From an uncultured Prevotella sp. (lineage in GTDB: Bacteria > Bacteroidota > Bacteroidia > Bacteroidales > Bacteroidaceae), in assembly GCA_947164965.1 (NCBI GenBank), contig CAMUYR010000009.1:8072-72071 (forward strand): 64,000 nucleotides of DNA, read 5' to 3'. Below, piece by piece: positions 166-61,355 of this stretch. Position numbers and translations under genes: made by a program. The stretch's first letter is position 1, and the number at the start of each line of letters is the position of its first letter. The notes under the pieces were generated by a model that saw only the letters and a program-made list of their open reading frames with translations, was not told the DNA's origin and searched no databases.

Positions 166-195
166 GATGGCTGATGTCTGATGGCTGATGTTTGA
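166..195. repeat. Heptamer array GATG(G/T)(C/T)T x4, intergenic
   Basis: GATGGCT GATGTCT GATGGCT GATGTTT directly after the stop codon. Confidence 0.85.
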
Positions 196-259
196 AGCCA
201 TTTTGCTGAATAAAACTAACCGTTCGCTGAAACCTTTCGGTGGACGGTTAAACTTTTCG

Positions 260-267
260 TACCTTTG
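260..267 (+). promoter_or_regulatory. Bacteroidota -7 promoter box TACCTTTG
   Basis: Matches TAnnTTTG upstream of the ATG at 336. Confidence 0.65.
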
Positions 268-335
268 TAACGTCAAAGAATCGAACATTAGAAAAAAACT
301 TCATTTAGTAATAAACAACTTAAAATTTAAAAGGT

Positions 336-842
336 ATGAAAAAGATTGTAATGACAATGGTAGCCCTGCTGACAATGACAGCAGCTGTAGCACAGGACAA
401 CGAGAACCGTCAGCGTCGAGAGTTCAAGAAGCCAACCCCCGAGGAGATGACCAACCGTATGGCTGAGAATCTGAAGTTGGATGACAAGCAGAAGTCAAAA
501 GTGCTTGAGCTGAACAAGGAATATGAAAATGTGCTGATGGGTGGTCCTGGCATGGGCAGAGGCTTTGGCAAAGGTATGGGCCGTGGTCCTCGTCCTGATG
601 GTGAGACAGGTGCCACAAAGGGTAACGATCAGCAGAAGCAGCGTCCTCAGCGTCCAGAACTGACTGACGAACAGAAGGCACAGATGAAGCAGCATATGGA
701 GAAACGCCAAGAGTACGACAAGAAGCTGAAGAAGATTCTTACCGACGAGCAGTATAAGAACTATCAGGAACAGCATCGTCGTCATGGACACGGTCCACGT
801 GGTCCTCGCGGTCACCGCGGTCCTCGTCCAGACATGCAGTAA
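336..842 (+). CDS. DUF4890-like (Spy/CpxP-like) exported helical protein
   Basis: Signal peptide ending AVA-Q; PEEMTNRMAENLKLDDKQK and LKKILTDEQYKNY motifs; G/R/P-rich low-complexity stretches. Confidence 0.7.
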   Translation: MKKIVMTMVALLTMTAAVAQDNENRQRREFKKPTPEEMTNRMAENLKLDDKQKSKVLELNKEYENVLMGGPGMGRGFGKGMGRGPRPDGETGATKGNDQQKQRPQRPELTDEQKAQMKQHMEKRQEYDKKLKKILTDEQYKNYQEQHRRHGHGPRGPRGHRGPRPDMQ

Positions 843-2932
843 ACCGTTTCCTTGTTGCTGTCGATGGGCAAGCGCTGGTTATCAATGACAAGCCAGCCTT
901 GCCCATCGCTGGCTTTTATCTTAATCTGTTCACGGTTCATCTCGATATGGATGAGTCCGTGTGGTGTAGGCACATCACCTTCCAGCCATTCCAGATCGCC
1001 CAGGTTAGGCCTTACTTCATATTCCTCATAGCCAGGCTTCGTAGGCTGTACGCCCAGATAATATTTGCCTAACAGATAGACGGGCGATGCTCCCCAGGCA
1101 TGACACAATGATTTGCCATAGGGACGTCCGTACATCGCCAGATGCTGGGTGCCGGATTCCGATGGGACGTATTTTTCCCAGAACGAGGTAGCACCCTCAC
1201 GTAGCATTCCACCCCAGTAGTCGCGCATTTCCTGAAGCACTTGGGTATGCAAGCCGTCAATGCAAAGCGTCTCCAGTTCGTAGAAACGCATGTATGGCGT
1301 CGTGATAGGATCGATATCAGGATTGAGCATCACACTTTGCATAATCTCCCGTCGCTCTTCTTCGTAGGCTAGTCCGTAGAGGATGGCAAACATATTGGGG
1401 AACTTGGTGATCTGTTTGTTCATCACACCTTCCTCAATGGCATGATAATATGCTTTCTGTTCGTAGCTCCAGAAGGTCTGCTTAATCTTATTGCGCAACT
1501 CTTCTGACTTCACACGATAGCCGTTCTTGATGCCTAGCAGTTTGGCACAGATAGCCATCGTCTCCATAGCCTTCATAAGCAGTATCTGCTCGAAGCACAG
1601 CGTGCCACGTTTGTGCATGGGGAAATCCACCCAATCTACGAAAATCCAGTCGTCAGGTTGTCCCTCGGCCATACCGTTTGCATTCAGACGCCCTTCTACA
1701 TAATCCATCAGCGTCACCATGCGTGGCCACATCTCACGTACAAAGTCAATATCAGCAGTATACTGGTAGTAGTCGAGGATAGACTTAAACCAGTAGAACG
1801 TATAGTCCATGATGGTATTGACATGAGCCGTCACAGGGTCCTTACCGCGTAGCTGACGGATGGTACGCTTCACGCACTCCGTATCGAATCGCAGGTAGTA
1901 GTTCATCAGATACGACTGGATGGCATCACCGCTCCACGTCCAACGGTCTCGTTTAATGCCATCCATGAAAAACTCACGGGTGGTGAGGTCCATGGTGTAG
2001 GCTGCCACATCCCAGATGCGGTTTATCTCGTCGTCAGAACAACGGAACGAACCACTATGCTGTGGATTATAAGGCGTGTATTCGTAGTCCATCAGCACCT
2101 CGTCGTAGCTGGCGTCGCCGTCCTTTTCGATATAGACAAATCGAAAGGCTTTGCTGCTACACACGGAGACAGTCCCCCTGTGCTGAATCGCACACGGGGA
2201 CAGTCCCCCTGTGCTAAGTCCCCCTGTGCTAAGAACGTCGAGCGTTTCGCAATGCTCTTTGTCAAGGGCTTCCTCGCGGCTCTCACCATAATAAATATGG
2301 ATGGTTCCGTGCAGGCCTTTTATCTTCAGATAGCCGAAGGTCTCTTTCCCGAAATCGTAGAGGGTGCCGTTGGTTGCGATGACATCGCTACTTATAGGGC
2401 AAAGCTCTTCGCGCTCCAGACGGTAGCTGGAGGGTGGGGTGTCAGGACTGTCGAAATGCCAGGAAGCAGCAGGCACGTAGATGCCAGAACCATGCGCCAC
2501 GCCGTTTTCGTCTATCCATAGCTTGTCTTCATACGTGGCGAGCCAGGTAGAGTCGGTATGGATGGTGCTGCCTTCTATGTAGAGGGCTGGTGGTGTGGCT
2601 TGATTCCATACTTTCAGGTTGAGCTTATGTTCTCCTGCAGGTATACGATAAGTAGATGCAGGAAACTGCAACTTACCATCGAGTGCAAAGTTATACTGTC
2701 CCTCGCAGGCAATGGTGATCGTCTCCTCCTGCTCAAGGGTAAAAGCCTTCGAGAATTCTACCGTCACATAGTGTGAATCCTGTTTCCAGAACGGTGGAAA
2801 CATAGCACCACGTTCCGTCCTGCGGTTATTGAAAATATTACCTAGCCATATCTCGAAGTCGCCAGGATACCATATCCAGGTAGCCTTTTGGCTGTTAGCC
2901 ATTAGCTGTTGGCTATTATTTGATGCCTGCAT
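812..2932 (-). CDS. Alpha-L-rhamnosidase, GH78 family (BT1001-like)
   Basis: FRCSDDEINRIW, DGIKRDRW.WSGD and SLCHAWGASP motifs; TWIWYPGDFEIWL N-terminus; no signal peptide. Confidence 0.85.
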   Translation of the reverse strand: MQASNNSQQLMANSQKATWIWYPGDFEIWLGNIFNNRRTERGAMFPPFWKQDSHYVTVEFSKAFTLEQEETITIACEGQYNFALDGKLQFPASTYRIPAGEHKLNLKVWNQATPPALYIEGSTIHTDSTWLATYEDKLWIDENGVAHGSGIYVPAASWHFDSPDTPPSSYRLEREELCPISSDVIATNGTLYDFGKETFGYLKIKGLHGTIHIYYGESREEALDKEHCETLDVLSTGGLSTGGLSPCAIQHRGTVSVCSSKAFRFVYIEKDGDASYDEVLMDYEYTPYNPQHSGSFRCSDDEINRIWDVAAYTMDLTTREFFMDGIKRDRWTWSGDAIQSYLMNYYLRFDTECVKRTIRQLRGKDPVTAHVNTIMDYTFYWFKSILDYYQYTADIDFVREMWPRMVTLMDYVEGRLNANGMAEGQPDDWIFVDWVDFPMHKRGTLCFEQILLMKAMETMAICAKLLGIKNGYRVKSEELRNKIKQTFWSYEQKAYYHAIEEGVMNKQITKFPNMFAILYGLAYEEERREIMQSVMLNPDIDPITTPYMRFYELETLCIDGLHTQVLQEMRDYWGGMLREGATSFWEKYVPSESGTQHLAMYGRPYGKSLCHAWGASPVYLLGKYYLGVQPTKPGYEEYEVRPNLGDLEWLEGDVPTPHGLIHIEMNREQIKIKASDGQGWLVIDNQRLPIDSNKETVYCMSGRGPR
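2160..2233. repeat. Palindromic GGGGACAGTCCCC element, about 2.5 copies, in frame in GH78
   Basis: cacacggagacagtccccctgtg / cacacggggacagtccccctgtg / gtccccctgtgctaag; encodes LSTGGLSTGGLSPCAIQHRGTVSV. Confidence 0.85.
2886..2917. repeat. Heptamer array (GCYAAYN family) forming the GH78 N-terminus
   Basis: TTTTGGC TGTTAGC CATTAGC TGTTGGC; encodes NSQQLMANSQK. Confidence 0.8.
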
Positions 2933-5900
2933 TGTTTTTGATTTGTTCGTTTACTTGTGGTCCGTTATTCTCCCAGATGTTGCCAGGACCATTGGCATTC
3001 TTCAGGAATTTCTCTGCTGGTGTCCAGTTGTCACGGATGGTGATGTTCGAAGATCCCTCGTCGGTATACAGATAGAACCAATGGTTGGGGGCGTGGACGT
3101 AGCTGGGTGTAGCAATGTCGCGTACCACATTCTCACTAATCAGCGTTCCTGGCTGATTTCCCAGCGTATAGATACCTGCACAGTCGTACATGTGTTGGGC
3201 GTAGTTGTAGATGAGATTTGCGTGCACCTTATTATCCTTCATACATACCAGGTCACGGTTCCAACCCCAACCCAGCGAGATACCCGTGTATGAGACATCG
3301 TGGATGGTGTTATGCTCGATATTGATGCCCGAAACATAGCCCGCACAGATGGCCACACAGCCCCAGTCTTCATTGGTGACGTTATAGAAGAGGCTCTGCT
3401 CCACCGTCTGGTTGGTACATACCTCCCGAAAGTCTGTGGGCTGATAGGGCAGGTGAGTCTCTAATCCTTCTGGCGAGAAGGAACCACACACATAGCCATT
3501 CATCGCGATATCCGTAAACGTACAATGTGTCGTCTTGCCACCACGACAGCCCACGACATAATCAAGACCAGAGCCACCCAAGTGTTCAAAGCGGCAATTC
3601 TCGAAATTGATGTTCTCCGTATGGCGTAGTTCCACAGCGGCATCAGCACGTCCCAACCATCCCTGATTGTCCAGTTTGTGATTGTTCGGACGGTCTATCT
3701 GTGGGCGCAGCTTATAAGCTTCCGTCAGATACATGCCAGCCTGCAAGGGCACATGACCTTTTTCCGATGGGCGCATCCAAGTCGTATGACTGAAGGTGAC
3801 ACCTTTTATCTCTATATTCCGCACAGGACGTTCTGCTGTACCTATTACCTCCACCAACGTTTCGAGAACAGGAACGACGGCAGTAAATTGTTCACTTTTC
3901 ACGTTTAACTTCTCACTTTCCCGTGGCATGTAGTATAGCTTGTGCTCACGGATGTCGTGATACCACTCGCCAGGTACATCCAGCAGCTCTTTGGCATTTG
4001 TCAGATAGAATGGTGACGGATGTCCTGTATTGGGTGTCATAGGCGAAGGCCAGGGATGCTCAAACTGCAGCTTAGCTTCCGGGTTGTGAAATCTCACAGC
4101 TACGGAATCGCCCTGTGCTGTCAGACTCTTGATGCGCAGGTTCGATGTGCACCACATCTCGTGCAGTACCATCTCAGCGTATGGCGCCTTCATGATTGTC
4201 TCCACCGCTTTCTTTGGTACCCACAGAATATGGTTCTTCTTGTCGTAGGTGCGTATGCGGTTCATCTCTTCAAAGTCCTGTATGTCACGTGCTCGGATGG
4301 CTTTCTCTCCGTTTACCCATAACTGCCTGAAATCCAGAGGTCGCCCGTTGAAGTCTGGCACATCTGCCACCATCAGTTTCCCTTGGCGCTTCCAGTTCTT
4401 AATCGCCACTCCTCCGCTGATTACCGCATTCTCTCCTTCTATGCGCAACCCGCTATCTTCCGGACGCAGACGGATAGGTTCGTAGAGCCAGTAGGTGCCA
4501 GCACCGAGATGGATGGTGACATCAGTGGCTTGTCCTAATCGGCGCATTTCGCGAGCCTTCCTGATGGCATCCGTCAGCGATGAGTCGGGTGTGATGTTGA
4601 TATCTGCAGCCTGGATGGGCAGATACGAGAAGAGGAAGAATAGCAATATGCCTACAAACTTCTTAAAGTGAATAGAAAGCATCGTCAGGTCGTCACTCTG
4701 TTCTGCCTCTCCTACAAATGTGTGTACAGCTTCAGTCATATTATCAATCAGTTGCTTGGGATCTCTGCTTGATGTCTCAGCCACCTCGTTGATGCGCTCC
4801 TCCTGGAACTGCTCGTGGTTGATATTCTCAGCCTCCGTCAGTCCGTCTGTATAGAGGAAGATGGTTGTCTGGTCGTCAATCTCTGTTTCCTGCAGCGTAA
4901 AGTCCCAACCACCCATCACACCTGCAGGCAGGTTCGGATCGCAGGGTAATAAGCCGATGCCTCGTTCACCTATCAAGAGTGGCGCATCGTGTCCCGCATT
5001 ACAATAGCTCATGTGTCCGGTCTTGAGGTCTAGCACACCCACAAACAGAGTTGCAAACATGTTCGAATCGTTGCCTTCAGCCATAGCGTCGTTGATGCGT
5101 CTGACTATCAGGTTGGGTGCTGTCTCATGCATTGAGATAGTACGGAACTGGGCCTGTGTCACAGCCATCACCAAGGCTGCAGGCACACCCTTTCCCGATA
5201 CGTCGCCAATACAGAAGAAGAGGTTGTTGTCGCGGAAATAGAAATCAAACAGGTCGCCACCTACCGCTTTGGCAGGTTTCAGTCGTCCGTAGATGTCCAC
5301 CTCTTGGTGATCGGGGAATGGCGAGAATGCCTTGGGCAACATCGACATCTGGATATCGCTGGCAATATGCAACTCACCTTCTATCATTGCCTTCGAGGCT
5401 GTTGTCTTTTGCAACTGGTCGATATATTGCGTCAGTGATATCTGCATGTTCTCAAACGAGTCGCGCAACTCGCGTATCTCGTCTTCTGTCTTAATATTCG
5501 GCAGTTCCGCATTAAAGTCGCCCTTTGCCACTTCCGATGCCGAATTTGCCAGAGTCTTCAGTGGGAACAGCTGCGAATGGATGACAGTCTTCAGCACCAC
5601 ACCTATCGTCAGCAAGAGCACAATGAGCAGAATCAGCATGTGCATTCGCAACCTGTTAGGCTGCTCCATCACTTTCTCTTCCGGGATAGTGAAGCAGACA
5701 GACCATTGTACTCTCGATACTGGTGCATAGAATACCAGCGAGGTTCCTTGTTTCTTTTTCGATGCGTTCGATGTGAATAGCGCCAGGTCGTTGATAGTGT
5801 CTACGCCCTTTTCCCATCTCAGCATCTTGTTGGCCAACAGCGATGCTTCATTGTCTTTTATCTTTCTCAGTTGTGTGACGGCATTAGCCGTTTGTATCCA

Positions 5901-6617
5901 TTGAATATCAGGATGGCACACAAACTGAGAGTCGCGCCCCAGGATGAACACCTCCGAATAGTCGTAAGGCTTGGCACCTTCCACAATCTGCTGCACCCAG
6001 CGCAGGTCTACGTCGGCACACAGAATGGCATAGGTCTCTCCCTGCTCGTCGTGTAAGGGTACAGAGTATGACACCATCGCACGTTTCGTCGACATCGAGT
6101 CGATATATGGCAAGCACCAGTAGCCTTTGTCCAGCTTGTTGGTGTATATCCAGTTGCTGTCCGTCTCCAGATAGCAGAAGTCGTTTTCCGGACCGCCTAT
6201 CTCGTCCTCAGTCAGTTCACCGGTCATGGGATCGCGCGAGATGGTTGGTGCATAGTAGCGTCCTTGATCGGGAAAATAGTCGGCTTTATACATCAGTGTC
6301 ACGGCGGCGATGTCTTCGTTGGCTTCTATCAGTCGTTGCAGTAGTGTGTTTGCCAGCATCTCGTGAGGCGCCATCATGTAGGCATAGCTGGCTGCTGTCT
6401 TGACTGCCGTCTCAACTGTCGACACACGGTTATCTATCACCTTGATGGCATTCTCCATCGAACGGCTAGCCTGACGGTGTGTCTCTTCAGCAACGATGCC
6501 GCGTGTGTAGTTCATCTGCCATAATCCTCCTACCAGCGTGATAATCGTCACAATACCCAGCACCATGATGGTAGTACGTATCGCAACCGATCTGTTCAGA
6601 ATCCCAGGAAGTTTCAT
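2916..6617 (-). CDS. Fusion: TM-Cache-TM-HAMP-SpoIIE/PP2C phosphatase + hydrophobic linker + GH141-like beta-helix glycosidase
   Basis: Single 1233-aa ORF. PP2C motifs VGGDLFDF, IGDVSGKG, NAGH, LYTDGLTEA, SDDLTML; then FVGILLFFLFSYLPIQA; then BT1002-like LDFRQLWVNG, HVPLQAGMY, DNQGWLGR, YLYTDEGSS, NANGPGN. Confidence 0.85.
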   Translation of the reverse strand: MKLPGILNRSVAIRTTIMVLGIVTIITLVGGLWQMNYTRGIVAEETHRQASRSMENAIKVIDNRVSTVETAVKTAASYAYMMAPHEMLANTLLQRLIEANEDIAAVTLMYKADYFPDQGRYYAPTISRDPMTGELTEDEIGGPENDFCYLETDSNWIYTNKLDKGYWCLPYIDSMSTKRAMVSYSVPLHDEQGETYAILCADVDLRWVQQIVEGAKPYDYSEVFILGRDSQFVCHPDIQWIQTANAVTQLRKIKDNEASLLANKMLRWEKGVDTINDLALFTSNASKKKQGTSLVFYAPVSRVQWSVCFTIPEEKVMEQPNRLRMHMLILLIVLLLTIGVVLKTVIHSQLFPLKTLANSASEVAKGDFNAELPNIKTEDEIRELRDSFENMQISLTQYIDQLQKTTASKAMIEGELHIASDIQMSMLPKAFSPFPDHQEVDIYGRLKPAKAVGGDLFDFYFRDNNLFFCIGDVSGKGVPAALVMAVTQAQFRTISMHETAPNLIVRRINDAMAEGNDSNMFATLFVGVLDLKTGHMSYCNAGHDAPLLIGERGIGLLPCDPNLPAGVMGGWDFTLQETEIDDQTTIFLYTDGLTEAENINHEQFQEERINEVAETSSRDPKQLIDNMTEAVHTFVGEAEQSDDLTMLSIHFKKFVGILLFFLFSYLPIQAADINITPDSSLTDAIRKAREMRRLGQATDVTIHLGAGTYWLYEPIRLRPEDSGLRIEGENAVISGGVAIKNWKRQGKLMVADVPDFNGRPLDFRQLWVNGEKAIRARDIQDFEEMNRIRTYDKKNHILWVPKKAVETIMKAPYAEMVLHEMWCTSNLRIKSLTAQGDSVAVRFHNPEAKLQFEHPWPSPMTPNTGHPSPFYLTNAKELLDVPGEWYHDIREHKLYYMPRESEKLNVKSEQFTAVVPVLETLVEVIGTAERPVRNIEIKGVTFSHTTWMRPSEKGHVPLQAGMYLTEAYKLRPQIDRPNNHKLDNQGWLGRADAAVELRHTENINFENCRFEHLGGSGLDYVVGCRGGKTTHCTFTDIAMNGYVCGSFSPEGLETHLPYQPTDFREVCTNQTVEQSLFYNVTNEDWGCVAICAGYVSGINIEHNTIHDVSYTGISLGWGWNRDLVCMKDNKVHANLIYNYAQHMYDCAGIYTLGNQPGTLISENVVRDIATPSYVHAPNHWFYLYTDEGSSNITIRDNWTPAEKFLKNANGPGNIWENNGPQVNEQIKNNAGIK
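3891..3918. repeat. Heptamer array (TCACTTT family), in frame in the GH141-like domain
   Basis: TTCACTT TTCACGT TTAACTT CTCACTT; encodes SEKLNVKSE. Confidence 0.7.
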
Positions 6618-13552: not shown

Positions 13553-13726
13553 GGCTTCTTTTGGTGGTTTTAAAGGCTAATATGTGGTATTCTGAAGGCT
13601 ATTTTGCCTCGTTCTAAAGGCTGTTTTTGGTCATTTTGAAGGCTACTACGGGTTGTTCCAAAGCCTTCTTAGGGTCATTCTAAAGGTTTCTATGGGTCGT
13701 GCTAAAGGCTACGATGGGGCATAGAG
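13551..13726. repeat. Degenerate 22-bp tandem array (AAGGCT-anchored), 8 units
   Basis: AAG(G/C) anchors at 13551, 13573, 13595, 13617, 13639, 13661, 13683 and 13705. Confidence 0.85.
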
Positions 13727-13809
13727 AGCTTTACCATCAGGCAAAGGAAACTTCAGGATGAGGCATCATGTATGTTTATACACATATAGAAACGACGTAG
13801 CAAGCGGGG

Positions 13810-13875
13810 AGTTTGAAGTAAGCAAACTAGGAGTTTAGTTACGGCAAACTGCCAGTTTAGTGCCGGTAAACTCTG
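13810..13875. repeat. 22-bp palindromic-unit array AGTTT-N9-AAACT x3
   Basis: AGTTT at 13810, 13832 and 13854; same family as the array at 63386. Confidence 0.85.
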
Positions 13876-13930
13876 AAGGGGTAGAGAAATCGAGTATTTA
13901 TGCATTTCCTGCATGGATATGCAAGAGCGC

Positions 13931-14012
13931 AATGGAATTGCTTCCATCAATAGGTGCAATTGCTAGATTTAATGGTAACAATTGCTACCATTAATGGAAA
14001 CAATTATCAGAT
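13931..14012. repeat. 22-bp palindromic-unit array (AATGGTAACAATTGCTACCATT), about 3.5 units
   Basis: CAATT at 13957, 13979 and 14001. Confidence 0.75.
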
Positions 14013-17907: not shown

Positions 17908-19068
17908 TTATTCTTCAGGATTCTTTGAGTGGTAGTATTCAAGAGGAGCACCGTTGATGGCATCCTGGGTGTGGTTTATCCAGATCTGACGGATCTTAGG
18001 CAATTCGAGCAGACCGTACTCAATCATCGTCGAGTTGTCGCACTCGTAGCCCAGGTGATGGAAGTACATCTTCCAAGAAGTGTCCTCGACCTCGCCCTCT
18101 TCGTTAGGTGTGAAGCCTACGCCTTCCTGCCAGTTGTCGTCATCGTCGCCAGCCATATCGTTGTGACCGTGGTCGCCATCGATAGACATGAGCGGTGTGC
18201 AATATACCTTACCACTGGTGATGCCAGCAGCCACCATACGGGCATAGACATTGGTCTTGAAGTTGTCCATCATATCAACGGTTCCTACGAAGTAGTTCTT
18301 GCTGTACTTCTGCAGCTCGGTCTCCAGTTCGGTGTAGCGAACGTTAGCCTTATAGGTGTCGTACTCATCGGGGTTACCATGACCCATGAAAGCGACAACA
18401 GCATTGGCTGCCTTGTCACCATAGAGTGCATCGAGCTCCTTGGCAACAGATTTCACATCTTCCTCAGCATCCTGCAACAGGGGCACACCGAGCTTCAGGG
18501 TTACACCAGCCAGATAGGCATCGTCGAGGTCGCCATTGGCATTGTTGGCGAAGTCCTTGATGTAGTTGATAACGCGGGTGTACTCCTCGCCGGGAATCAC
18601 CTGCAGCGACTGGACAACAATCTCCTCATACTGCACACCCTCGGCAGCAAAGGCGTTGAGCCAGAAGGGAGGTGCATAGTAGTTGCGGGAAACACCGTTC
18701 TCACCGGCAGCGGCACGGTTGATACAGATGGCTGATGAGTAGCTCAGGAATACGTCGTAGCCGGCGAATGCATTCTTGTAGGCATCAATCGTTGTGTCGA
18801 ATGCATTGAAGCCCTGTTCCCATGTGCAACCGAAGGCAACGAGCAGAATAACCTTCTTGTTCTTCTTGTTAGCTTTCACGTGATCGGTAACAGCTTTCTG
18901 ATAGCGTGACCAGTTATTGTCCTGTGGCACTTCCACAACGACCTCTACTTCCGTCTCGACAGGAACTTCTACGATTTTCTCCACTTCTTTTTCCTTTTCG
19001 CAGGAAGCGAGACCCATGGTGAGGCAAACGGCTGCGAATGCCATCACGAAATACTTAATCTTCTTCAT
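17908..19068 (-). CDS. cbiK: CbiK-family chelatase lipoprotein
   Basis: Lipobox LAS-C with acidic residues after the Cys; ILLVAFG, MGHG and PLM..GDH..NDM motifs; start placed at MKKIKY. Confidence 0.8.
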   Translation of the reverse strand: MKKIKYFVMAFAAVCLTMGLASCEKEKEVEKIVEVPVETEVEVVVEVPQDNNWSRYQKAVTDHVKANKKNKKVILLVAFGCTWEQGFNAFDTTIDAYKNAFAGYDVFLSYSSAICINRAAAGENGVSRNYYAPPFWLNAFAAEGVQYEEIVVQSLQVIPGEEYTRVINYIKDFANNANGDLDDAYLAGVTLKLGVPLLQDAEEDVKSVAKELDALYGDKAANAVVAFMGHGNPDEYDTYKANVRYTELETELQKYSKNYFVGTVDMMDNFKTNVYARMVAAGITSGKVYCTPLMSIDGDHGHNDMAGDDDDNWQEGVGFTPNEEGEVEDTSWKMYFHHLGYECDNSTMIEYGLLELPKIRQIWINHTQDAINGAPLEYYHSKNPEE

Positions 19069-21208
19069 TGTTACTTGATTTAAAATTAGACTTATTGTTA
19101 GTAAACTTAAGTTTCTTGCCTTGTGCAAAGCGAATGGTCAGCGTGCCATAGACGGTGCGACCTGGGGTGGTAGTGCCCAAGTGCAGACCATGAGGCGTGC
19201 GGTCGACATAGTTGAAGATATTGTCGATGCCTGCCTCAAGACGGAACAGCCACTTCTTGCTGACGGGGAACTCGTGGTTGGTGGATATGCGCCACGTCTG
19301 ATAGCCCTTGCCATCGCCATTTATCTGATAATAGCGCTTCGACGACATGCGACCATAAAGACCAACACCCATGTGATAGGCCGACGAGAAGTCGTGGTTC
19401 CACGTGAGCAGCCAGCTGCCCTTATGGTGGGCCATACCATCGATGACGACATCGATAAGACGGTCGTGGTTGGTGTCGTACTTCTTGGCATCGGTATCCA
19501 GATAGCTATAGCTGGCACCCACCATCCACTCGCGGTTCAGACGATAGCGAATGCTGACGTCGATGCCCTTGGTCTCGGCTGTTTCCAGATTCTGATACTG
19601 GCGTGTCTTCCTGGGGTCGTACTTCACGATATACTCAGCGGGAGCCTGACTGTTGGGGATGGTGACAAGCGTAATCATATCCTTCACCTTGTTGATATAT
19701 CCCGTCACCGTGACGTTCAGTCCCTGCCAGTTGTATTCGCCACTCACCGCATAGTAGTTGGAGGTCTGAGGCTTCAGATTCTCGTTGCCCAGATAGAGAT
19801 AGGTGGCATTCATGTATTTCACATAGCGATAATACAATTCCTTGGGGGTAGGGGTCTTGAAACCCTGACTCCACGTGGCACGCAGACGGATATTGTCGCC
19901 CAGCGAGAGCATGCCGGATATCTTAGGCGAAAGGTTGGTGCCGAACTGTACGTTATGGTTCAGACGCAGACCGCCAGTGATGTTCATAGCGACCTTCGGA
20001 CTGAAGGTATAGCTGAACTCATCCTGCACGTAGGTAGCCTCGGTATTGTCTCTGGCTACACCGCCTTCCACACGCATGGGAGCCTCCAGATAGTCGTAAC
20101 GCCATTCTAAACCCGCACTCAGACGATTGTTGTAGGGTAGGGTGAAGATGCCCTTCATATGGGCCATCATACGGCGCTGATCGCTCTGCAGCTCTTCATC
20201 GCCAGGGAAGTAGGGATAGTAAGGGGTGAAGTTGCCATGAGGGTCATAACCATCAGTCAGTGTGGTATCCGTATAATTATAATAGTACGCGTGACGATCC
20301 CAGTTGACGTCGAGTGTCACCTGGTCGTTCTTGTTCAGTTTCCACTTACCACCAGCAGCCAGACTCTGATTGCGATAAGCCATATCGTAGGTCTTCACGT
20401 CGACGGCAGCATACTTACCGCTGGGGCGATAGATACGTTTCCAATACGTTGAGCCCTCGGCATAGAGTTCCAGACGCTTCGTGGGTTCGTAGGTGAGACG
20501 CTCGGACACTTGCCAACTGGTATGCCTATTGACCGTCATATTACGGGAGTCTTCTATCAGGAACTCCGTCTGCTTGGGGTCTTCCGTAGCGGTGTTCTGC
20601 CAACCATCGGAGTGCTGCAATTGGAAATTGGTATAGCTCTTCACCTTGCCAATGGCAATGCCTATGCCGTTGTGCTGGCGGATATCGCCGTAGCTGCCAC
20701 CACGTGTGCTGTTTTCGAAGAGCAGTCCCTCGTTGTGCTTTTTCGTGATGATGTTTACCACACCGGCAATGGCATCGGAGCCATAGAGGGCACTCGAGGC
20801 ACCCTTGACAATCTCAATCTTCTCAATGTTCTGGGGATCGATGAGCGAGAGGTCGTTCTGTCCACCCACATCGCCATGAATGCGCTTGCCGTCGATGAGC
20901 ACCAGGATATAGTCGTTCCCTAAGCCGTTCATCTGCATCTGCGAGCCCATGTCGTCCTGCGAGAAAGCAAACGACGCCGTAAGACCTGCGAGGATATCCT
21001 CCAGACTCTTACCACCATAGTTGCGCAGCATCTTCTGCGTGATGACCTCCGTTTGCACAGGGGCATTCTTCAGCAAGTGCTGGGTACCAGTACCCGTCAC
21101 CACTACTTCTTGCAAACTGTCGGAGCGCCAAATGTCGCTTTGTGCCTCGACAGACGCGACTGCACATAAAGCCAGCAATCCTACTGTCAGTAATCTTTTC
21201 ATTAGCAT
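19055..21208 (-). CDS. btuB: BtuB-like TonB-dependent receptor
   Basis: EVVVTGTGT; KIEIVKGASSALYGSDAIAG; first gene after the cobalamin riboswitch. Confidence 0.85.
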   Translation of the reverse strand: MLMKRLLTVGLLALCAVASVEAQSDIWRSDSLQEVVVTGTGTQHLLKNAPVQTEVITQKMLRNYGGKSLEDILAGLTASFAFSQDDMGSQMQMNGLGNDYILVLIDGKRIHGDVGGQNDLSLIDPQNIEKIEIVKGASSALYGSDAIAGVVNIITKKHNEGLLFENSTRGGSYGDIRQHNGIGIAIGKVKSYTNFQLQHSDGWQNTATEDPKQTEFLIEDSRNMTVNRHTSWQVSERLTYEPTKRLELYAEGSTYWKRIYRPSGKYAAVDVKTYDMAYRNQSLAAGGKWKLNKNDQVTLDVNWDRHAYYYNYTDTTLTDGYDPHGNFTPYYPYFPGDEELQSDQRRMMAHMKGIFTLPYNNRLSAGLEWRYDYLEAPMRVEGGVARDNTEATYVQDEFSYTFSPKVAMNITGGLRLNHNVQFGTNLSPKISGMLSLGDNIRLRATWSQGFKTPTPKELYYRYVKYMNATYLYLGNENLKPQTSNYYAVSGEYNWQGLNVTVTGYINKVKDMITLVTIPNSQAPAEYIVKYDPRKTRQYQNLETAETKGIDVSIRYRLNREWMVGASYSYLDTDAKKYDTNHDRLIDVVIDGMAHHKGSWLLTWNHDFSSAYHMGVGLYGRMSSKRYYQINGDGKGYQTWRISTNHEFPVSKKWLFRLEAGIDNIFNYVDRTPHGLHLGTTTPGRTVYGTLTIRFAQGKKLKFTNNKSNFKSSNNEED

Positions 21209-21257
21209 GTCTTGTCTTCCGCTACCGCATAATCCTGTACGGGCGTACTCATCGTTA

Positions 21258-21425
21258 TCAGGCAGGTATTCTGGCTCTCCCCAATCTGCTTTACCTTCCC
21301 GAGCTTGTGCTCAGTGGCGTTATACAAGCAGACCTTTCAAAGGGGGATTACAGCTGCAGGTACAGCTCCGGATTTGCACCGGATTCCCTTACATCATGGC
21401 GGCATCGGCCACCAGATTGCCATTT
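21258..21425 (-). ncRNA. Cobalamin (B12) riboswitch
   Basis: Minus strand reads AGGGAATCCGGTGCAAATCCGGAGCTGTACCTGCAGCTGTAA...GCCACTG...GGGAAGG...GAGCCAGAATACCTGCC; promoter TATCTTTG at 21441-21434. Confidence 0.9.
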
Positions 21426-21509
21426 TATTGCGGCAAAGATACAACTTTTTTCTGTTGATTGTGCATAATTAACGGATTTTTTTTAATTTTGCACAAAAAT
21501 CATCTCAAG

Positions 21510-22169: not shown

Positions 22170-22738
22170 TAGCCCGCAATGCGGAGGCGTTCTCCTTTAT
22201 CTATCAGGAGAATATCGACCGATTTGAGCATGTCTCGTTTTTCGATCCCGAGACGGATGTGCCTTGTCTTGACGATGCCGATCTGTTATACCTGCCTGGA
22301 GGCTACCCTGAGAAACATCTGGAGGCGCTGGTGGCTAACGAGGCTTGCCGCAAAACTATCAGGGACTATGCTGAGCGAGGTGGAAGGATTCAGGCTGAAT
22401 GCGGAGGTATGATGTATCTCTGCGAGAAGATAGTGACTGACGACGGTGAGTATCCGATGTGTGGCGTGCTGCCTTACGCTATTACGGCCCGCAAGGCTGA
22501 CAGGAAGCTGTCGCTGGGTTATCGCAGGTTTATGCTGGATGGTAGGGAATATCGTGGACATGAGTTTCATTATACGCAGTTCCTCACCCCACCCCTTGCC
22601 CATCCCCTTCAAGGGGAGGGGAATGGGGAGGGGTCAGTTACGCAGGTCTATAACGCCAAGGGCGAGCCTGTTGACACCCCTGTGTTGAAGTATAAGAATG
22701 TGCTGGCGAGCTATACGCATCTGTATATTATTGGATAA
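22145..22738 (+). CDS. cbiA: Cobyrinate a,c-diamide synthase, C-terminal glutamine amidotransferase half (-1 frame)
   Basis: ARNAEAFSFIY, YLPGGYPE, AECGGMMYL, RGHEFHY, ASYTHLY. Confidence 0.75.
   Translation: MGETARIVIARNAEAFSFIYQENIDRFEHVSFFDPETDVPCLDDADLLYLPGGYPEKHLEALVANEACRKTIRDYAERGGRIQAECGGMMYLCEKIVTDDGEYPMCGVLPYAITARKADRKLSLGYRRFMLDGREYRGHEFHYTQFLTPPLAHPLQGEGNGEGSVTQVYNAKGEPVDTPVLKYKNVLASYTHLYIIG
22582..22633. repeat. CCCCTCCCC/GGGGAGGGG-type palindromic element in frame in cbiA-C
   Basis: cctcaccccaccccttgcccatccccttcaaggggaggggaatggggagggg; encodes LTPPLAHPLQGEGNGEG. Confidence 0.75.
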
Positions 22739-22784
22739 TGGATAATTCTTTGACCTAAAGGTACAAAGCGACCAGAGGTCGAGC

Positions 22785-22812
22785 GGACAATGGACAATTG
22801 ATAATTGAGAAT
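22785..22812. repeat. Heptamer array just upstream of the cbiP ATG
   Basis: GGACAAT GGACAAT TGATAAT TGAGAAT. Confidence 0.75.
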
Positions 22813-22813
22813 T

Positions 22814-27009: not shown

Positions 27010-27039
27010 CACTTTTCACTTGTCACTTTTCACTTTCAC
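27009..27039. repeat. Heptamer array TCACTT(T/G) x4 spanning the cobU stop and cobT start
   Basis: Encodes VKVKSDK*. Confidence 0.85.
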
Positions 27040-27534
27040 AGCTATGCCACTAACCATGAGTATTACCTCATCGGCTTTTGAAGCGATATACTGATTCATC
27101 CAACCTTCAAGATCGGTGAATTTTCTTTGGATGGCGTTGTCGCTCACACCGCCACTGCCTATCTCGTTGGTTACGAAGATATAGGTGGCATCTTGAGCTG
27201 TGAAACGGTCGAACTCAGCTTTGACAGTTTCTAGTGTCTTCTCAACATCTGATGTCTCGAAAAAGAAATTAGTCAACCAGAGCGTCACACAATCAATGAC
27301 CACCACACGTCCTGTGAGGTCGTGTCTGCTCAAGTATTTCTCTTCTTCAATATTCGTCCATTGAGGGCCTCGCCGTTCCTGATGTTTTCGCACCCGTTCA
27401 CGAAACTCATCATCCCAGATATGTGCCGTAGCCACATAGACGGGATGGTCCGAAAGACTGAGCGCAAGATGCTCTGCCTGACTGCTCTTGCCTGAGCGTT
27501 GCCCACCTGTTATGAGAATGATTTTTCTCTCCAC
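27016..27534 (-). CDS. cobU: Adenosylcobinamide kinase/guanylyltransferase
   Basis: GGQRSGKSS, RVRKHQERR, IDCVTLWLTN, VTNEIGSG. Confidence 0.95.
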   Translation of the reverse strand: MERKIILITGGQRSGKSSQAEHLALSLSDHPVYVATAHIWDDEFRERVRKHQERRGPQWTNIEEEKYLSRHDLTGRVVVIDCVTLWLTNFFFETSDVEKTLETVKAEFDRFTAQDATYIFVTNEIGSGGVSDNAIQRKFTDLEGWMNQYIASKADEVILMVSGIAVKVKSDK

Positions 27535-38666: not shown

Positions 38667-40691
38667 TTATTTAATGATTGCCGTCCATCCGCCACCACTG
38701 CTCAGTCGGATGGTTAGATGGTCTTTCGCACTGACTGTTTGGCGCGTGTGCTGATAGTCGGTAGCCTCTTTCGTGGCATTCTTGCCATCAGCGAAGATAT
38801 CAGCCTGATGCTGTCCTGCACTGAGGAACGAGAGGTCGACGGTCAGCTCGCGTGACGTCCAGTCGGTCATTGCTGCCAGATACCAGGTGTCGCCCTTCCT
38901 GCGGGCTATCAGCGTATAGGCTCCCAGCTGTCCGTCGAGTGCTATTGTCTCGTCAAACGTGGTGGGAATCTGGGCGATGAAGTCTGTACACTCCTGATTC
39001 TGCATGTACTTTGTGGGGCTGTCTGCCAACATCTGCAGCGGCGCCTCGAAGGTTGTATACATCGCCATCTGGTGTACGCGCGTGCCCTGACTCATGGGGT
39101 GGTTGTTGTTTCCGAAGAAACTGTCTTTCATAGCGTTCGACATAGCACCAGGCGTATAGTCCATAGGACCTGCCAGCATGCGCAGATAGGGTGCCGTCAC
39201 ATCGTAGTGGGGCTGGTCGTGCAATGGTCCGTCGCCTATGCGTGGCTCCCACTTCGAATTCTCCAGACCCTTCACACCCTCGAAGTTGAAGATGTTGGGG
39301 TAGGCGCGCTGGATGCCGAAAGGCTTCAGTCCGTGATAGTCGAGCACCAGATGATGGCGTGCAGCACATGCTGCCAACTCGTAGGCTGAGGCTATCACCT
39401 GTTGGTCGTCACGATCAAAGAAGTCTACCTTGAATCCCTTGATCCCCATCTCGGCATAGTGCTTCATCACCTGTTCGCTGACGGTGTTGTCGCCCAGCGG
39501 GTCGCTGCCTATCAGATTGCGCCAGCTCGACCATAGGATGATGCCCACACCCTTCTTCTGTCCGTAGGCTATCAGCTGCTTCAGGTCTATCTCTGGATTC
39601 AGGTCGCTCATCAGCGACTCCTTGCCGCTCCATCCTTCGTCTATAATGATGTATTCCAGATGGTTCTTAGCCGCAAAGTCGATGTAGTATTGATAGGTCT
39701 TGGTGTTCATGCCCGATGCGAAGTCGACACCAGTAATATTGGTGTTGTTCCACCAGTCCCAAGCCACCTTGCCAGGATGTATCCACGACGTGTCGCTGAT
39801 GCGGCATGCTGGAGCCAGTCGCTGTGCCATATCGCAGTTCAGGATGTCGGCATCGTGCTCTGTGATGACAACAACTCGCCAGGGGAGTGCCTGTCGTCCG
39901 TTCATCTTGGCGATATAGTCAGCACGCTTGGTGGGTACCAAATTCAGACGGTCGTAACCGCCAATCACCTGTTCCAAAGGGTAGGGGGCAAACTCCGCAA
40001 CTAAGGCATTTCTCTGACCTCTTACCTCTGACCTCTTACCTCTAATAAACATGCCAGGGTAGTTTTCGACGCTAGCATCCATGACGATGCATTTCATGTC
40101 GTGAGGCAGACAAACGGCTAGCGGTGTGATAGCCAGCGAGTCGCTGAACATCTTCGACAGAGGCTGCTCGTCGTAGTACGACTCAAACGAGTAGCAGTAG
40201 CGCTCGCCACCTCGATTGTCGTTCACGTAGGGCATGAATGCCTGATAGTCTTTCTCGAAGCAGTATTCCACCGTCTCGTTCTTCACTAGCGTCGGCTTCG
40301 TGTGCCCGCTGATGAGGCGGTAGGCAGCACCGTCGTTGTAGGCACGTACCTCGATGGTTATCTTCTGGTTGGTATACATCAGCAGCTGTCCGTAGTCGTC
40401 TCTGATGGTTGCCCGCTTGTAGAAGGGGTTCTCGAAACTGCTCTCTATCTGCTTCTTGGCCACCTTGCCTATCTTGCCCAGCCCCAGCGTCTTGCTGCCC
40501 TGTTGCAACTGTATGTTGATCTCTGAAGGCAGCAGCACTGTCTTCCCGTCGTAGGTCACCGACCATCTGACGGCATCGTCAGCAGTCACCGTTACTTTCA
40601 CCTTTCCGTTAGGCGAACTCACCTCGTAATTGGCTGCCGACAGGCTCATGGCCATCAGGCAGAACAGACTCATGATTAGTTTTTTCATCAT
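38667..40691 (-). CDS. Glycoside hydrolase family 97
   Basis: PGKVAWDWW, YIIIDEGW, GFKVDFFDRDDQ, NFEGVKGLE, GPMDYTPG. Confidence 0.9.
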   Translation of the reverse strand: MMKKLIMSLFCLMAMSLSAANYEVSSPNGKVKVTVTADDAVRWSVTYDGKTVLLPSEINIQLQQGSKTLGLGKIGKVAKKQIESSFENPFYKRATIRDDYGQLLMYTNQKITIEVRAYNDGAAYRLISGHTKPTLVKNETVEYCFEKDYQAFMPYVNDNRGGERYCYSFESYYDEQPLSKMFSDSLAITPLAVCLPHDMKCIVMDASVENYPGMFIRGKRSEVRGQRNALVAEFAPYPLEQVIGGYDRLNLVPTKRADYIAKMNGRQALPWRVVVITEHDADILNCDMAQRLAPACRISDTSWIHPGKVAWDWWNNTNITGVDFASGMNTKTYQYYIDFAAKNHLEYIIIDEGWSGKESLMSDLNPEIDLKQLIAYGQKKGVGIILWSSWRNLIGSDPLGDNTVSEQVMKHYAEMGIKGFKVDFFDRDDQQVIASAYELAACAARHHLVLDYHGLKPFGIQRAYPNIFNFEGVKGLENSKWEPRIGDGPLHDQPHYDVTAPYLRMLAGPMDYTPGAMSNAMKDSFFGNNNHPMSQGTRVHQMAMYTTFEAPLQMLADSPTKYMQNQECTDFIAQIPTTFDETIALDGQLGAYTLIARRKGDTWYLAAMTDWTSRELTVDLSFLSAGQHQADIFADGKNATKEATDYQHTRQTVSAKDHLTIRLSSGGGWTAIIK
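40012..40043. repeat. Heptamer array CTCT(G/T)AC x4.5, in frame in GH97
   Basis: Encodes RGKRSEVRGQR. Confidence 0.85.
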
Positions 40692-40770: not shown

Positions 40771-42390
40771 ATGAAGAAAAGTAGTATTTTTTCAGCCTTG
40801 CTCATCGCGATGATGCTGGTTTCACCCGCTTCTTTGAGGGCCGACAACAAGTCTTCGCAGCTACAGCCCCTGATGATTCTTGGTGGCGAGTTAAGCAATT
40901 CGGCAGCGACGTCGGTAGCTGATATCGACGAGGTGTTGCCACGCATGAAGTCGTTAGGACTCAACACCGTGCTGGTGCCTGTCTATTGGGAACTCATGGA
41001 GCCCGTCGAGGGTCAGTTCGATTTCACCCTTGTCGACCGCACCATCGATGTTGCCCGTCAGCAGCAATTGAAGATAGTGCCCTTGTGGTTCGGTGCCTGG
41101 AAGAATTCTATGTCGTGCTATGCGCCAGCATGGTTCAAGCGCGATGTCAAGCGTTTTCCTCGTGCAGTGACCAAGGAAGGCAAGCCTCTGGAGATAGCCT
41201 CCTGCTTTAGCAACAATGTGCTGCAGGCCGATCTGAAGGCCTTCTCAGCCCTTATGCAGCATATCGCCGAACGCGATCCTCAGCGCCAGGTGGTCATCAT
41301 GATGCAGATTGAGAATGAGATAGGTATGCTTGAGTCTGCTCGCGACCATTCGCCACTTGCTGAAAAAGCCTACAAGTCAGAGTACTGGGCTGAGCGCTAT
41401 GGTACTGACGACTATGCCGACGAGAAGTTTATGGCCCTCTATTATGCTCGCTATGTCGAGCATCTCGCCAAAGCAGCCCGTCGCATCCACGATATGCCGC
41501 TCTACGTCAATGCCGCTATGAACAGTCGTGGGCGCAAGCCTGGCGAATATCCCTCCGCAGGACCGTTGGCCCATCTCGTCGACTTCTGGCAGCAGGGTGC
41601 CCCCAGCATCGACATTCTCGCTCCCGATATCTACGATACAGGCTTCAAGTCGTGGGCATCACAATACGCCATGCCCCTCCGACCACAGGATAGTGGCAAA
41701 GTGAAGAACCGTCTGTTTATTCCTGAGAGCCGTTGCTGCGAGAACAGTGGCGTGCGAGCCCTCTATGCCTTTGGCGAGCATCAGGCCCTCGGCTTCTCGC
41801 CCTTCGCCATCGACCAGGCATCGCCCAAAGAGACGGAATCAGTCACCCAGGCATACAGCCTCTTGCACCAGATCAATTCTCTCACCTCTTACCACCCACC
41901 TCTTACCTCTTATGGCCTTCTGTTCGATCAGCAGGATCGTGAGCGTGTTATCGACGATGAAGGTGTCATCATGACCTGCCGCCATTACTTCACGCTGCCT
42001 TGGGACCCTCGCGCCACCGACGGCTCTACATGGCTTGAAGGTGGTGCTATGCTCATCCGTTTGGGCAAGTACGATTACCTGTTGGCAGGTAGTGGTGTCG
42101 TTGTCGATTTCAAGACGCGCACTGAGAAACAACAGGAGCAGCAGAAGAAGCTGGGTGAAGACGGCTTTGCAGAAGCAGGCAACGAACCTTCAACCCTCAA
42201 CCCTCAACCCTCAACCTTCAAAGGCTCCCGTCTCGGCCTCCTCTCCGTCGACGAGGTAACCATCGATGCCCAAGGTCAGATGCACTACCTGCGTCGTCAT
42301 AATGGCGACCAGAGTCATCAGGGACGTCATGCCCGCATCAGCATTGGCGAGTGGAAGATGTTGCACATTCGTCTCTACGAATACAAATAA
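40771..42390 (+). CDS. GH35-like beta-galactosidase with a DUF5597-type C-terminus
   Basis: GGELSNS, WFGAWKNSMS, MQIENEIG, FIPE, GFSPFAID. Confidence 0.8.
   Translation: MKKSSIFSALLIAMMLVSPASLRADNKSSQLQPLMILGGELSNSAATSVADIDEVLPRMKSLGLNTVLVPVYWELMEPVEGQFDFTLVDRTIDVARQQQLKIVPLWFGAWKNSMSCYAPAWFKRDVKRFPRAVTKEGKPLEIASCFSNNVLQADLKAFSALMQHIAERDPQRQVVIMMQIENEIGMLESARDHSPLAEKAYKSEYWAERYGTDDYADEKFMALYYARYVEHLAKAARRIHDMPLYVNAAMNSRGRKPGEYPSAGPLAHLVDFWQQGAPSIDILAPDIYDTGFKSWASQYAMPLRPQDSGKVKNRLFIPESRCCENSGVRALYAFGEHQALGFSPFAIDQASPKETESVTQAYSLLHQINSLTSYHPPLTSYGLLFDQQDRERVIDDEGVIMTCRHYFTLPWDPRATDGSTWLEGGAMLIRLGKYDYLLAGSGVVVDFKTRTEKQQEQQKKLGEDGFAEAGNEPSTLNPQPSTFKGSRLGLLSVDEVTIDAQGQMHYLRRHNGDQSHQGRHARISIGEWKMLHIRLYEYK
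41879..41913. repeat. Heptamer array CTCT(C/T)AC x5, in frame
   Basis: Encodes SLTSYHPPLTSY. Confidence 0.85.
42185..42221. repeat. Heptamer array AACC(C/T)TC x5, in frame
   Basis: Encodes EPSTLNPQPSTF. Confidence 0.9.
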
Positions 42391-51504: not shown

Positions 51505-51509
51505 ATATT

Positions 51510-60672: not shown

Positions 60673-60792
60673 TTGCAATTCTTGCTATCCTTAAAATTCA
60701 TTTTCGATTTTCAGTGTGCAAAGATATACAAAAAATATAAGGTGGCAAAAAGTTACCACCTTATATTATTAATAAGAAGCGATTTTCTTGAT

Positions 60793-61215
60793 TTACTTCG
60801 TCTTCAGCAAGTCGCGAATCTCAGCAAGCAGCTCTTCCTGAGTGGGACCCTTTGGAGCCTCTGGCTCTGCTGGCTTTTCCTTCTTCAACTTGTTCATAGC
60901 CTTGATCATCAGGAAGATACAGAAGGCGATGATGAGGAAATCGAGGATGTTCTGAATGAACTGGCCATAGGCAAAGACGGAAGCACCAGCCTCTGTAGCT
61001 TCTTCAAGTGTCTTATACTTTGTGTCATCGCTGAGGTTGACAAAGAGGTCGACAAAACTAACGCCACCAGTTGCTACACTGATGAGAGGCATGATGATGT
61101 CGCTAACCAGACTCGACACAATTTTACCAAAGGCACCGCCGATGATTACACCGACAGCCATGTCCATCACGTTGCCCTTCATGGCAAACTCTTTGAATTC
61201 TTTAATAAATCCCAT
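60793..61215 (-). CDS. mscL: Large-conductance mechanosensitive channel
   Basis: [23 protein letters not shown]; [11 protein letters not shown]. Confidence 0.97.
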
Positions 61216-61219
61216 AACC

Positions 61220-61268
61220 TTTAATCTTTAATGTTTAATGTTTAATGTATTATGTTTAATCTTTAATG
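61220..61268. repeat. Heptamer array TTTAAT(G/C) x7 in the mscL leader
   Basis: Seven units ending 4 nt before the mscL ATG. Confidence 0.85.
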
Positions 61269-61320
61269 TAAAAATTGCAATCTGCGTTTAGCAATCTTGG
61301 ATATTCTTCCTTGATTTATC

Positions 61321-61355
61321 TCACTTTTCGCACCGTTGTTCTCACTTTTCACTTT
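61321..61355. repeat. Interrupted TCACTTT heptamer array
   Basis: TCACTTT at 61321, 61342 and 61349 (in 7-bp phase). Confidence 0.5.

Follow-up and report, generated by a model that had tools for sequence, protein, structure and literature searches.

The window considered here, a stretch of 64,000 nucleotides, corresponds to C9:8072-72071 (the prefix C denotes the contigs of this genome) in the 3.80-Mb genome (81 contigs, 47.7% G+C) of a rumen Prevotella belonging, by its genes and closest loci, to the Xylanibacter ruminicola group, a cyanobacterial origin being rejected on the same evidence. It encodes a cobalamin operon, glycoside hydrolases and the like, and both these genes and the spacers between them hold short tandem arrays of heptanucleotide units, which are the subject of this study. 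A reading of the sequence alone, made without database searches (hereafter, the sequence-only reading), had listed about 20 such arrays, 15 of them translated. With Tandem Repeats Finder (TRF), 18-19 of the 20 were recovered within a few bases of the positions first given, and the translated fraction was confirmed: 13 arrays are stop-free, in frame and fully inside 10 enzymes identified with Pfam, and two more overlap gene ends. Open reading frames (ORFs) are our own greedy calls, with starts set after the first upstream stop.

Many of the in-frame arrays lie in genes for cobalamin synthesis. In CobQ, an AAAAGCC/AATAGCC array (24106-24139, plus strand) encodes amino acids (aa) 431-442 of the C-terminal tail (LKAKSQKPIANS), a segment that in orthologues is of unrelated sequence and similar length. 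CbiB carries both a 32-bp AATTATC array (24449-24480, plus) in a loop at aa 70-81 (LIINCQLSIINF) and a composite of ATTAGCC and GCCAAAA arrays (24881-24921, plus; parts called at 24881 and 24899) at aa 214-228. This second array makes its segment approximately 11 aa longer than the usual orthologue state, and it is missing from most orthologues. The 32-bp CTCTCAC array of CobT (26309-26340, minus) encodes aa 224-234 (LSPLTSPLSPL), in a connector between two helices. GCCAAYA arrays are found twice in the CbiE-CbiT protein, once in a loop of CbiE (29219-29251, plus; aa 65-75, QLIANSQQPKA), which is 18 aa long here compared to 9 aa in its base state, and again, as a perfect 14-bp alternation, in the linker between the CbiE and CbiT domains (29665-29700, plus; aa 213-225). 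A CAATTAT array (34701-34738, plus; aa 215-227, QLSIIHCQLFIVN) occupies the linker between the CbiJ and CbiD domains; two of the in-frame arrays thus lie exactly in interdomain linkers. Further downstream, a CTCTYAC array (36038-36072, plus) encodes aa 88-99 of an HAD hydrolase, and a GGTTTGA (TCAAACC) array (37974-38006, minus) encodes aa 216-227 of a BtuF-like periplasmic binding protein (QNLKSQTSNLKP). Among the glycoside hydrolases, a CTCTGAC/CTCTTAC array (40012-40043, minus) lies in a GH97 N-terminal domain (aa 217-227, RGKRSEVRGQR), a CTCTYAC array (41879-41912, plus; aa 370-381) and an AACCYTC array (42185-42221, plus; aa 472-484, EPSTLNPQPSTFK) share the DUF5597 domain of a GH35/42-like protein, and a TCACTTT-type array (3891-3919, minus) encodes aa 900-909 (ESEKLNVKSE) of an ORF with a GH141 domain.

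Other arrays stand at gene ends or between genes. Upstream of the cobQ ATG at 22814, an AATTGAY-type array (22732-22813, plus) is split into halves (22732-22746 and 22786-22813) by a cassette at 22747-22785, and what had been reported as an array at 22785 is its right half. A TCACTTT array (27009-27036, minus) spans the junction of the cobU stop and the cobT start, where it encodes the last seven residues of CobU (VKVKSDK) with the stop before continuing through the spacer to the area of the cobT ATG. The AATTGAY array at 28997-29028 (plus) fills the gap that separates the stop of the preceding ORF (27499-28995) from the cbiE-T ATG at 29027. A GCTGTTAGCCATTA array with a period of 14, or twice 7 (2891-2918, minus), marks the junction between the end of the GH141-like ORF and the start region of a 706-aa ORF; should the latter begin at its long start, the array would encode NNSQQLMANS. 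Outside the called ORFs, 4.3 units of GATGKCT are found at 166-195. The intergenic TTTAATS array at 61220-61269 (7.1 units) is a member of the genome's largest family (30 loci), which usually abuts start codons. At 61321-61355, weak copies of TCACTTT are split by non-repeat sequence and were not among the TRF calls.

Three further features of the window were recorded. A cobalamin riboswitch (21244-21431, minus; Rfam RF00174, 88.5 bits) faces a 717-aa ORF at 19055-21208 (minus) and stands back to back with the cob operon, which starts at approximately 21459 (plus). In the ORF of 1233 aa at 2919-6617 (minus), a dCache-HAMP-SpoIIE phosphatase sensor (aa 91-651) is followed by a GH141 domain and beta-helix (aa 746-1041); the two parts represent an unusual fusion or else separate genes read through as one. 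Tandem units of 22 bp (TRF period 22, up to 3.6 copies) occur 50 kb apart at 13589-14005 and 63385-63450; these sites had earlier been read as a palindromic AGTTT-N9-AAACT, and with 105 period-22 and 67 period-21 TRF rows genome-wide they constitute a separate class of repeat.

Excess of period 7, module anatomy and genomic niches

Arrays were called with TRF at score cut-offs of at least 30, 40 and 50, the set with scores of at least 40 (235 period-7 arrays) being referred to as strong. At these three cut-offs the genome holds 427, 235 and 137 arrays of period 7, compared to 66, 0 and 0 in a genome simulated with an order-5 Markov model. An excess over periods 5, 6 and 8 had been set beforehand as the test of the sequence-only reading, and it was found: period 5 gave 13, 2 and 0 arrays, period 6 gave 104, 3 and 2, and period 8 gave 234, 77 and 36, such that 235 strong arrays stand against 2, 3 and 77, respectively. 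The statement that the period is always 7, however, has to be given up, as a smaller set of period-8 modules of equal total length is also present. Four TCA trinucleotides spaced at 7 nt are found at 83 loci compared to one in the simulation, and spacings of 6 and 8 nt gave 4 and 15 loci. In a mismatch-tolerant scan, the length distribution of period-7 repeats proved to be non-monotonic, with a dip at approximately 21-24 bp and a mode at 32 bp, whereas those of other periods fall steadily. The clustering that had been noticed at about 22-42 kb of the window is the highest in the genome: with 13 arrays, C9:30001-50000 (window approximately 21.9-41.9 kb, the cobalamin region) exceeds the genome average of 1.48 per 20 kb (Poisson 6.5e-9, uncorrected for the 522 overlapping windows), and it contains 11 of the 79 arrays that lie inside genes.

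The approximately 280 short arrays of the genome have a median length of 32 bp (interquartile range 29-35), or about 4.6 units. Period-8 arrays, with a median of 30 bp at 3.9 copies, are alike in total length; the length of a module is therefore more constant than its copy number. A universal rule of four units plus 4 nt was rejected, given that array lengths modulo 7 do not cluster at any one residue. In the strong set, 51 canonical units were distinguished, and the top ten families hold approximately 70% of the 235 arrays. Large families include ATTAAAC/G (ATTAAAS; 30 loci with the same C/G alternation), AATTGAC/T (AATTGAY; 35 in two listings), CTCTCAC/CTCTTAC (27), GTGAAAA (26) and TTAAGAA/G (23). 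Within a family, both ends are in fixed phase and two variant units alternate, which explains the period of 14 that had been described earlier. A TCA core had been proposed as common to the units; TCA/TGA is indeed enriched, being present in 52% of the units here and 68% of those in relatives compared to 25% of background heptamers, but it is not a rule. Most arrays are without secondary structure, and those of CTCTCAC and ATTAAAS fold at 0 kcal/mol.

Among the period-8 arrays, inverted pairs flank cores of approximately 100 bp at C2:142252-142470, C3:44208-44393, C35:18698-18905 and C22:38571-38725. Each pair forms a long imperfect palindrome in intergenic DNA, and in three of the four the core is extremely rich in A and T (TATA-like).

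Three niches were shown for the arrays, namely positions directly before starts, spacers beside promoter -7 boxes, and in-frame loops and linkers of enzymes. Of 281 arrays placed relative to ORFs, 79 lie wholly within long ORFs, 110 cross an ORF boundary and 76 fall between genes. For non-internal arrays near an ORF start, 103 of 158 lie within -30 to +10 nt of it, a count in which the start calls are partly circular; arrays of ATTAAAS and AATTGAY end 0-6 nt before an ATG. Those of GTGAAAA fill the spacer beside the Bacteroidetes -7 box, TAnnTTTG, including those of tRNA promoters and of divergent promoters placed back to back. A fourth setting may exist in a relative, where a 36-bp AATTGAC array (L158, approximately 1329-1365, compared with L135) is inserted directly after the GCCACTG (B12) box of a putative cobalamin riboswitch, recognized as such by eye; if so, arrays would colonize variable loops of structured RNAs too.

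The same sites in related genomes

Relatives were sampled as 80 genome loci around cobT and 80 metagenome contigs around the operon, giving 160 loci and 1.57 Mb; labels such as L015 and L100 denote individual related loci. They contain 268 period-7 arrays, or approximately one per 6 kb, and the finding of arrays of like kind in 160 independent loci, from isolates and metagenome-assembled genomes alike, rules out an artefact of assembly.

The loop of CbiE provides the fullest series of states. Its base state is 9 aa long (EQYHDEVVV), and short states of 10-13 aa are also found, one of which is a seed of 1.6 units (ATATCTCTCACCTCTGAC). A 19-aa state holds 4.6 units and is exactly 21 nt above the 12-aa state. 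At least eight unit families are represented in the states of 15-19 aa, with differing phases relative to the flanks. Concerted evolution, within the loop itself, of one ancestral array is unlikely, as the phase of TCA, judged by eye, differs among the families. The same loop was also seen with GC-rich hairpin inserts, or with arrays or seeds bearing a 39-bp cassette. The GC-rich hairpin inserts (CCCCTCTC..GAGAGGGG) are translated in frame in the CbiE loop of L080, L170, L097, L055 and L127 and in the CobQ tail of L169 and L150; the loops that hold them are those that hold heptamer arrays in other species.

In the loop of CobT, the units across species include CTCTCAC, CTCTCAA (10.6 units), ACTCCAC, CACCCAA, CCATCAC, ACTATTC, TCAGACA and others, or the sequence is not repetitive at all; segment lengths of 42, 49 and 56 aa correspond to steps of 7 aa. 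An alignment with the solved CobT of Thermus (1WX1) placed the array of the window in the helix-helix connector, where it adds 4 residues only; this placement was preferred to an AlphaFold model, which was discarded (predicted local distance difference test score, pLDDT, of 55). The array of the HAD hydrolase adds 7 aa and is present in two of 34 orthologues, and that of the BtuF-like protein has a net effect of +2 aa. The rarity of the former, together with the absence of the second CbiB array from most orthologues, confirmed that arrays are lineage-specific.

Where array and non-array states were compared in open frames, the net difference in length was a multiple of 3 in 34 of 34 cases (range -42 to +57), as the sequence-only reading had expected of coding insertions. 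The median array of 32 bp replaces a non-array allele with a median of 31 bp; arrays therefore mostly overwrite segments that were already variable, and do not simply add to them. The view that peptides are added to enzymes without a break of frame therefore stands with respect to frame and lineage specificity, but the arrays often overwrite variable loops with little net change, as with the 4 residues of CobT. Unit-number steps between relatives were +/-7 and +/-14 bp in non-coding DNA and only +/-21 bp in coding DNA, together with gains and swaps of whole modules. Three clean gains were seen beside a seed: a 44-bp TGAGGTT array at a start codon where TGAGATT stood already, a 39-bp CTTTAAA array bounded by CTTT, and the 36-bp AATTGAC array at the putative riboswitch mentioned above. 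Turnover is modest and the arrays are fairly stable passengers, being identical in six of six comparisons at 99% identity or more, and in 11 of 23 at 97-99%. The swaps between L100 and L103 were rejected as a sign of fast turnover, as these genomes are only 91.7% identical.

Families, tails and cassettes shared between loci

Among non-orthologous pairs of arrays more than 1 kb apart, the family (allowing up to one mismatch) was common to 21.7% of pairs within the same genome compared to 9.9% in different genomes. Sharing of the exact unit amounted to 8.3% within and 2.5% between genomes (Fisher 1e-7 to 1e-5), with pair counts that are not fully independent. Without the distance filter, the values were 22.9% and 10.0%, and the observed value was not equalled in any of 500 permutations of the labels. 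At orthologous sites of different genomes, the family was common to only 24.8% of pairs.

Tails that are not themselves repetitive also recur. A composite leader, (GTGAARA)n followed by the 12-mer ATTTGCTACCGC, was found at 8-9 loci, for example on C4, C14, C18, C25 and C57, mostly with an ATG 0-13 nt on, and the same array and tail are present in two relatives, L015 and L171; from its sequence, this looks like a copied 5' leader module. The 12-mer was rejected as an enriched motif of the genome in its own right (17 copies compared to 12 simulated), and it matters only as the tail of GTGAARA arrays. Likewise, three AATTGAY arrays bear an identical 38-bp cassette in the same phase. Shared non-repeat tails of this kind cannot be made by local slippage, and hence they point to copying between loci.

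The 38-39-bp cassette is a double hairpin (CGCTCGACC..GGTCG plus CTTTG..CAAAG), the hairpin versions of which are interchangeable. In this genome there are four copies, at window positions 22747-22785 and on C10, C14 and C17; in relatives it was found at L015, L017, L019, L095, L105, L107, L135, L152 and L171. Between close relatives the cassette appears as 39-bp in-frame indels and so acts as a separate mini-insert, and nine of the 13 clear copies are inserted at TC^A within heptamer arrays. A nested case, with one cassette inside another, was found in L015. The genome also encodes an IS200-like (RAYT-like) protein with a Y1_Tnp domain (C4:189999-190280, minus; Pfam PF01797, E 1.1e-10), with weaker look-alikes on C21 and C1, and this gene is a candidate mobilizer of the hairpin cassettes, albeit a weak lead. 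Taken together, the sharing of families within a genome and the conserved tails bear out one part of the earlier proposal of an active mechanism that deposits heptameric DNA, in that more than chance slippage is involved; the mechanism as such stays an inference.

Relation to known repeats, origin and significance

Dispersed families of tandem heptamers, several to a genome and mainly intergenic, reportedly occur in heterocystous cyanobacteria as short tandemly repeated repetitive (STRR) sequences. The link to these that had been drawn in the sequence-only reading is right in kind, both being dispersed tandem heptamers of several families, although host phylum and units differ; the units of STRR1-3, CCCCAGT, TTGGTCA and CAACAGT, have no match among the 51 canonical units of this genome. 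The small dispersed repeats (SDR) of Nostoc are said to be dispersed inserts of 21-27 nt found in hairpin-forming contexts, with different families at the same position among strains. As so described, they recall the interchange of arrays and 39-bp cassettes seen here, but they are not tandem heptamers. The Rickettsia palindromic elements (RPE), by repute palindromes of 100-150 bp, are reported to lie in frame in working genes and to be translated as surface loops. The Prevotella arrays resemble these accounts of RPE in their colonization of genes in frame, with dispersed copies in unrelated genes that are missing from orthologues; they differ in that they are direct repeats of 32 bp that form no secondary structure, two hairpins being found only in the separate 39-bp cassette.

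A scan for six TCA-phased heptamers across 185,579 species genomes listed matches that include Cyanobacteria, many Bacteroidota, Acidobacteriota, Planctomycetota, Verrucomicrobiota and a Parabeggiatoa; this kind of repeat is widespread, the scan being a measure of breadth and not of frequencies. A search of the literature found no paper joining Prevotella with heptanucleotide tandem repeats. As summarized in PMC4679880, the long simple sequence repeats (LSSRs) of Mrazek, Guo and Shah (2007) comprise tandem units of 5-11 nt, most often heptamers, that exceed chance, are phylogenetically scattered and were proposed to arise by slippage; units not divisible by 3 are said there to avoid coding sequence. 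The present arrays share with LSSRs, as thus summarized, head-to-tail units far above chance (235 strong arrays compared to 0 simulated) and variation of unit number among related loci (+/-7, +/-14 and +/-21 bp), but differ from that summary in forming modules of nearly constant length, approximately 32 bp, from few dispersed families, with about 28% in frame inside enzymes. The TAACTGA repeats of Beggiatoaceae, Cyanobacteria and some Bacteroidetes lie a few bases upstream of starts (MacGregor, 2015; PMC4679880). In forward orientation they stop all three frames, a stop-bearing heptamer repeated three times being sufficient to do so, and in reverse they are occasionally translated at the edges of proteins; horizontal or mobile spread was suspected, by a mechanism that was not known (PMC4679880). 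Here too, arrays end just upstream of starts in a stop-bearing forward orientation (the 103 of 158 given above, with the same partial circularity of start calls). However, one unit dominates there, whereas approximately 10 families are present here, none of them TAACTGA, and the coding copies here are many and lie in internal loops of conserved enzymes.

The explanation that we favor, and to which we would give about an even chance, is that the arrays are heptanucleotide modules of the LSSR/STRR kind that are seeded locally, templated from arrays of the same genome and filtered by selection. An array would start at a short local match to the unit, a seed of 4-11 nt, which would be extended by slipped or template-switched synthesis while DNA is replicated or repaired. 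The templates would probably be other arrays of the same genome, and such templating would account for the shared families, the shared module length and the shared non-repeat tails. Selection would then allow stop-containing orientations to persist only outside genes, and stop-free orientations with a net length divisible by 3 only in tolerant loops. We infer that the arrays behave as tiny copied DNA modules, and not as on/off switches. Several points weigh against this explanation. No donor-recipient pair has been shown and no enzyme is tied to the process. The sharing of families within a genome, computed from pair counts that are not fully independent, could stem from a mutational or selective preference of the lineage. 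Most of the replacements were seen between genomes approximately 92% identical and could represent several successive events or imports by homologous recombination. The position before starts is partly circular, ORF starts having been called after the first upstream stop and many arrays being stop-bearing. Local slippage alone accounts for the steps of +/-7 and +/-21 bp, and the 32-bp mode is without a demonstrated cause.

Purely local slippage, by which each array would have grown in place and the families would reflect selection for tolerance of the niche (loop-friendly, stop-free peptides, or AT-rich unstructured leaders), is considered unlikely. It would explain the steps of 7, 14 and 21 bp, the seeds at insertion sites, including the 1.6-unit state of the CbiE loop, and the existence of period 8, and the spread of TCA-phased arrays across many phyla is what a general property of polymerases would produce, an idea traced to Mrazek (2007) in PMC4679880. 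It fits poorly with 30 loci of ATTAAAC/G that have the same C/G alternation, with identical non-repeat tails and cassettes on arrays at several loci, with family sharing that is 2-3 times higher within a genome, with a non-monotonic length distribution peaking at 32 bp, and with net coding insertions of 24 or 27 bp, which are not multiples of 7.

Tails, defined module length and end phase could also be expected of ready-made modules inserted by a dedicated enzyme, whether a transposase of the HUH, Y1 IS200-like or RAYT-like type or a reverse transcriptase; the arrays would then be the smallest non-autonomous mobile elements, with machinery in common with the 39-bp cassettes. Agreement with this comes from nine of 13 cassettes inserted at TC^A (TCA being the core in which the units are enriched), from loops that hold arrays or hairpin cassettes interchangeably, and from an encoded IS200-like Y1_Tnp domain. 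Nevertheless, we regard it as rather doubtful: the arrays show neither terminal inverted repeats nor a consistent target duplication, their units and lengths form a continuum, the period may be either 7 or 8, and the Y1 gene is only a weak lead, with no link found to arrays or cassettes.

A role as selected cis-acting elements, be they binding sites for proteins or ribosomes, translation leaders, all-frame stop blocks between operon genes or promoter spacers, with the coding copies as spill-over, appears improbable. Approximately 37% of arrays abut ORF starts in consistent orientation, the GTGAAAA arrays occupy spacers by TAnnTTTG boxes (tRNA promoters included), the array at the cobU-cobT junction is kept in many species with a differing unit, and TAACTGA repeats were reported at a like position (PMC4679880). 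On the other hand, units at the same site differ freely among species, many orthologous sites are without arrays, 79 arrays lie inside proteins where a cis role is not apparent, and no binding protein is known. Finally, contingency loci, at which gain or loss of units would shift the frame and turn genes on or off, are suggested by a unit length that is not a multiple of 3 and by arrays in and before genes, but this idea, raised earlier as frameshift switches, merits almost no credence given that steps inside genes are of 21 bp only, net differences are multiples of 3 in all 34 comparisons, no broken frames were found at arrays among the 160 related loci, and arrays were identical in six of six comparisons at 99% identity or more.

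A wider proposal, advanced tentatively and thought unlikely to hold, is that one dedicated copy-and-paste system, at work in rumen Prevotella and maybe beyond this phylum, produces both the arrays and the 39-bp cassettes at TC^A and writes modules of approximately 32 bp into seeds throughout the genome. If true, no smaller mobile element would be known, and the loops of enzymes and riboswitches, gene leaders and promoter spacers would be under continual remodelling by such modules.

Among the long simple repeats of bacteria, those of heptanucleotides are the most common, and the question of their origin has stood since the 1990s. To this question are added here a genome-specific test of families, the statistics of frame and of the hotspot, the series of CbiE loops, the composite modules and the TC^A site of the cassettes. 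Rumen Prevotella provide a natural experiment, with hundreds of related genomes in which one loop holds nothing, a seed, an array or a cassette, and such a series lets the birth, swapping and decay of arrays be read directly. Because arrays stand before starts in a phylum that lacks Shine-Dalgarno sequences, a role in translation can be put to the test. The arrays also offer annotators an explanation for many strange low-complexity peptides, and wrongly called starts, of Prevotella proteins. Should copying between loci be what spreads them, the arrays would represent selfish DNA of a new and very small type, would keep supplying enzyme loops with new sequence, and would be useful as natural markers of insertion-tolerant sites for protein engineering.

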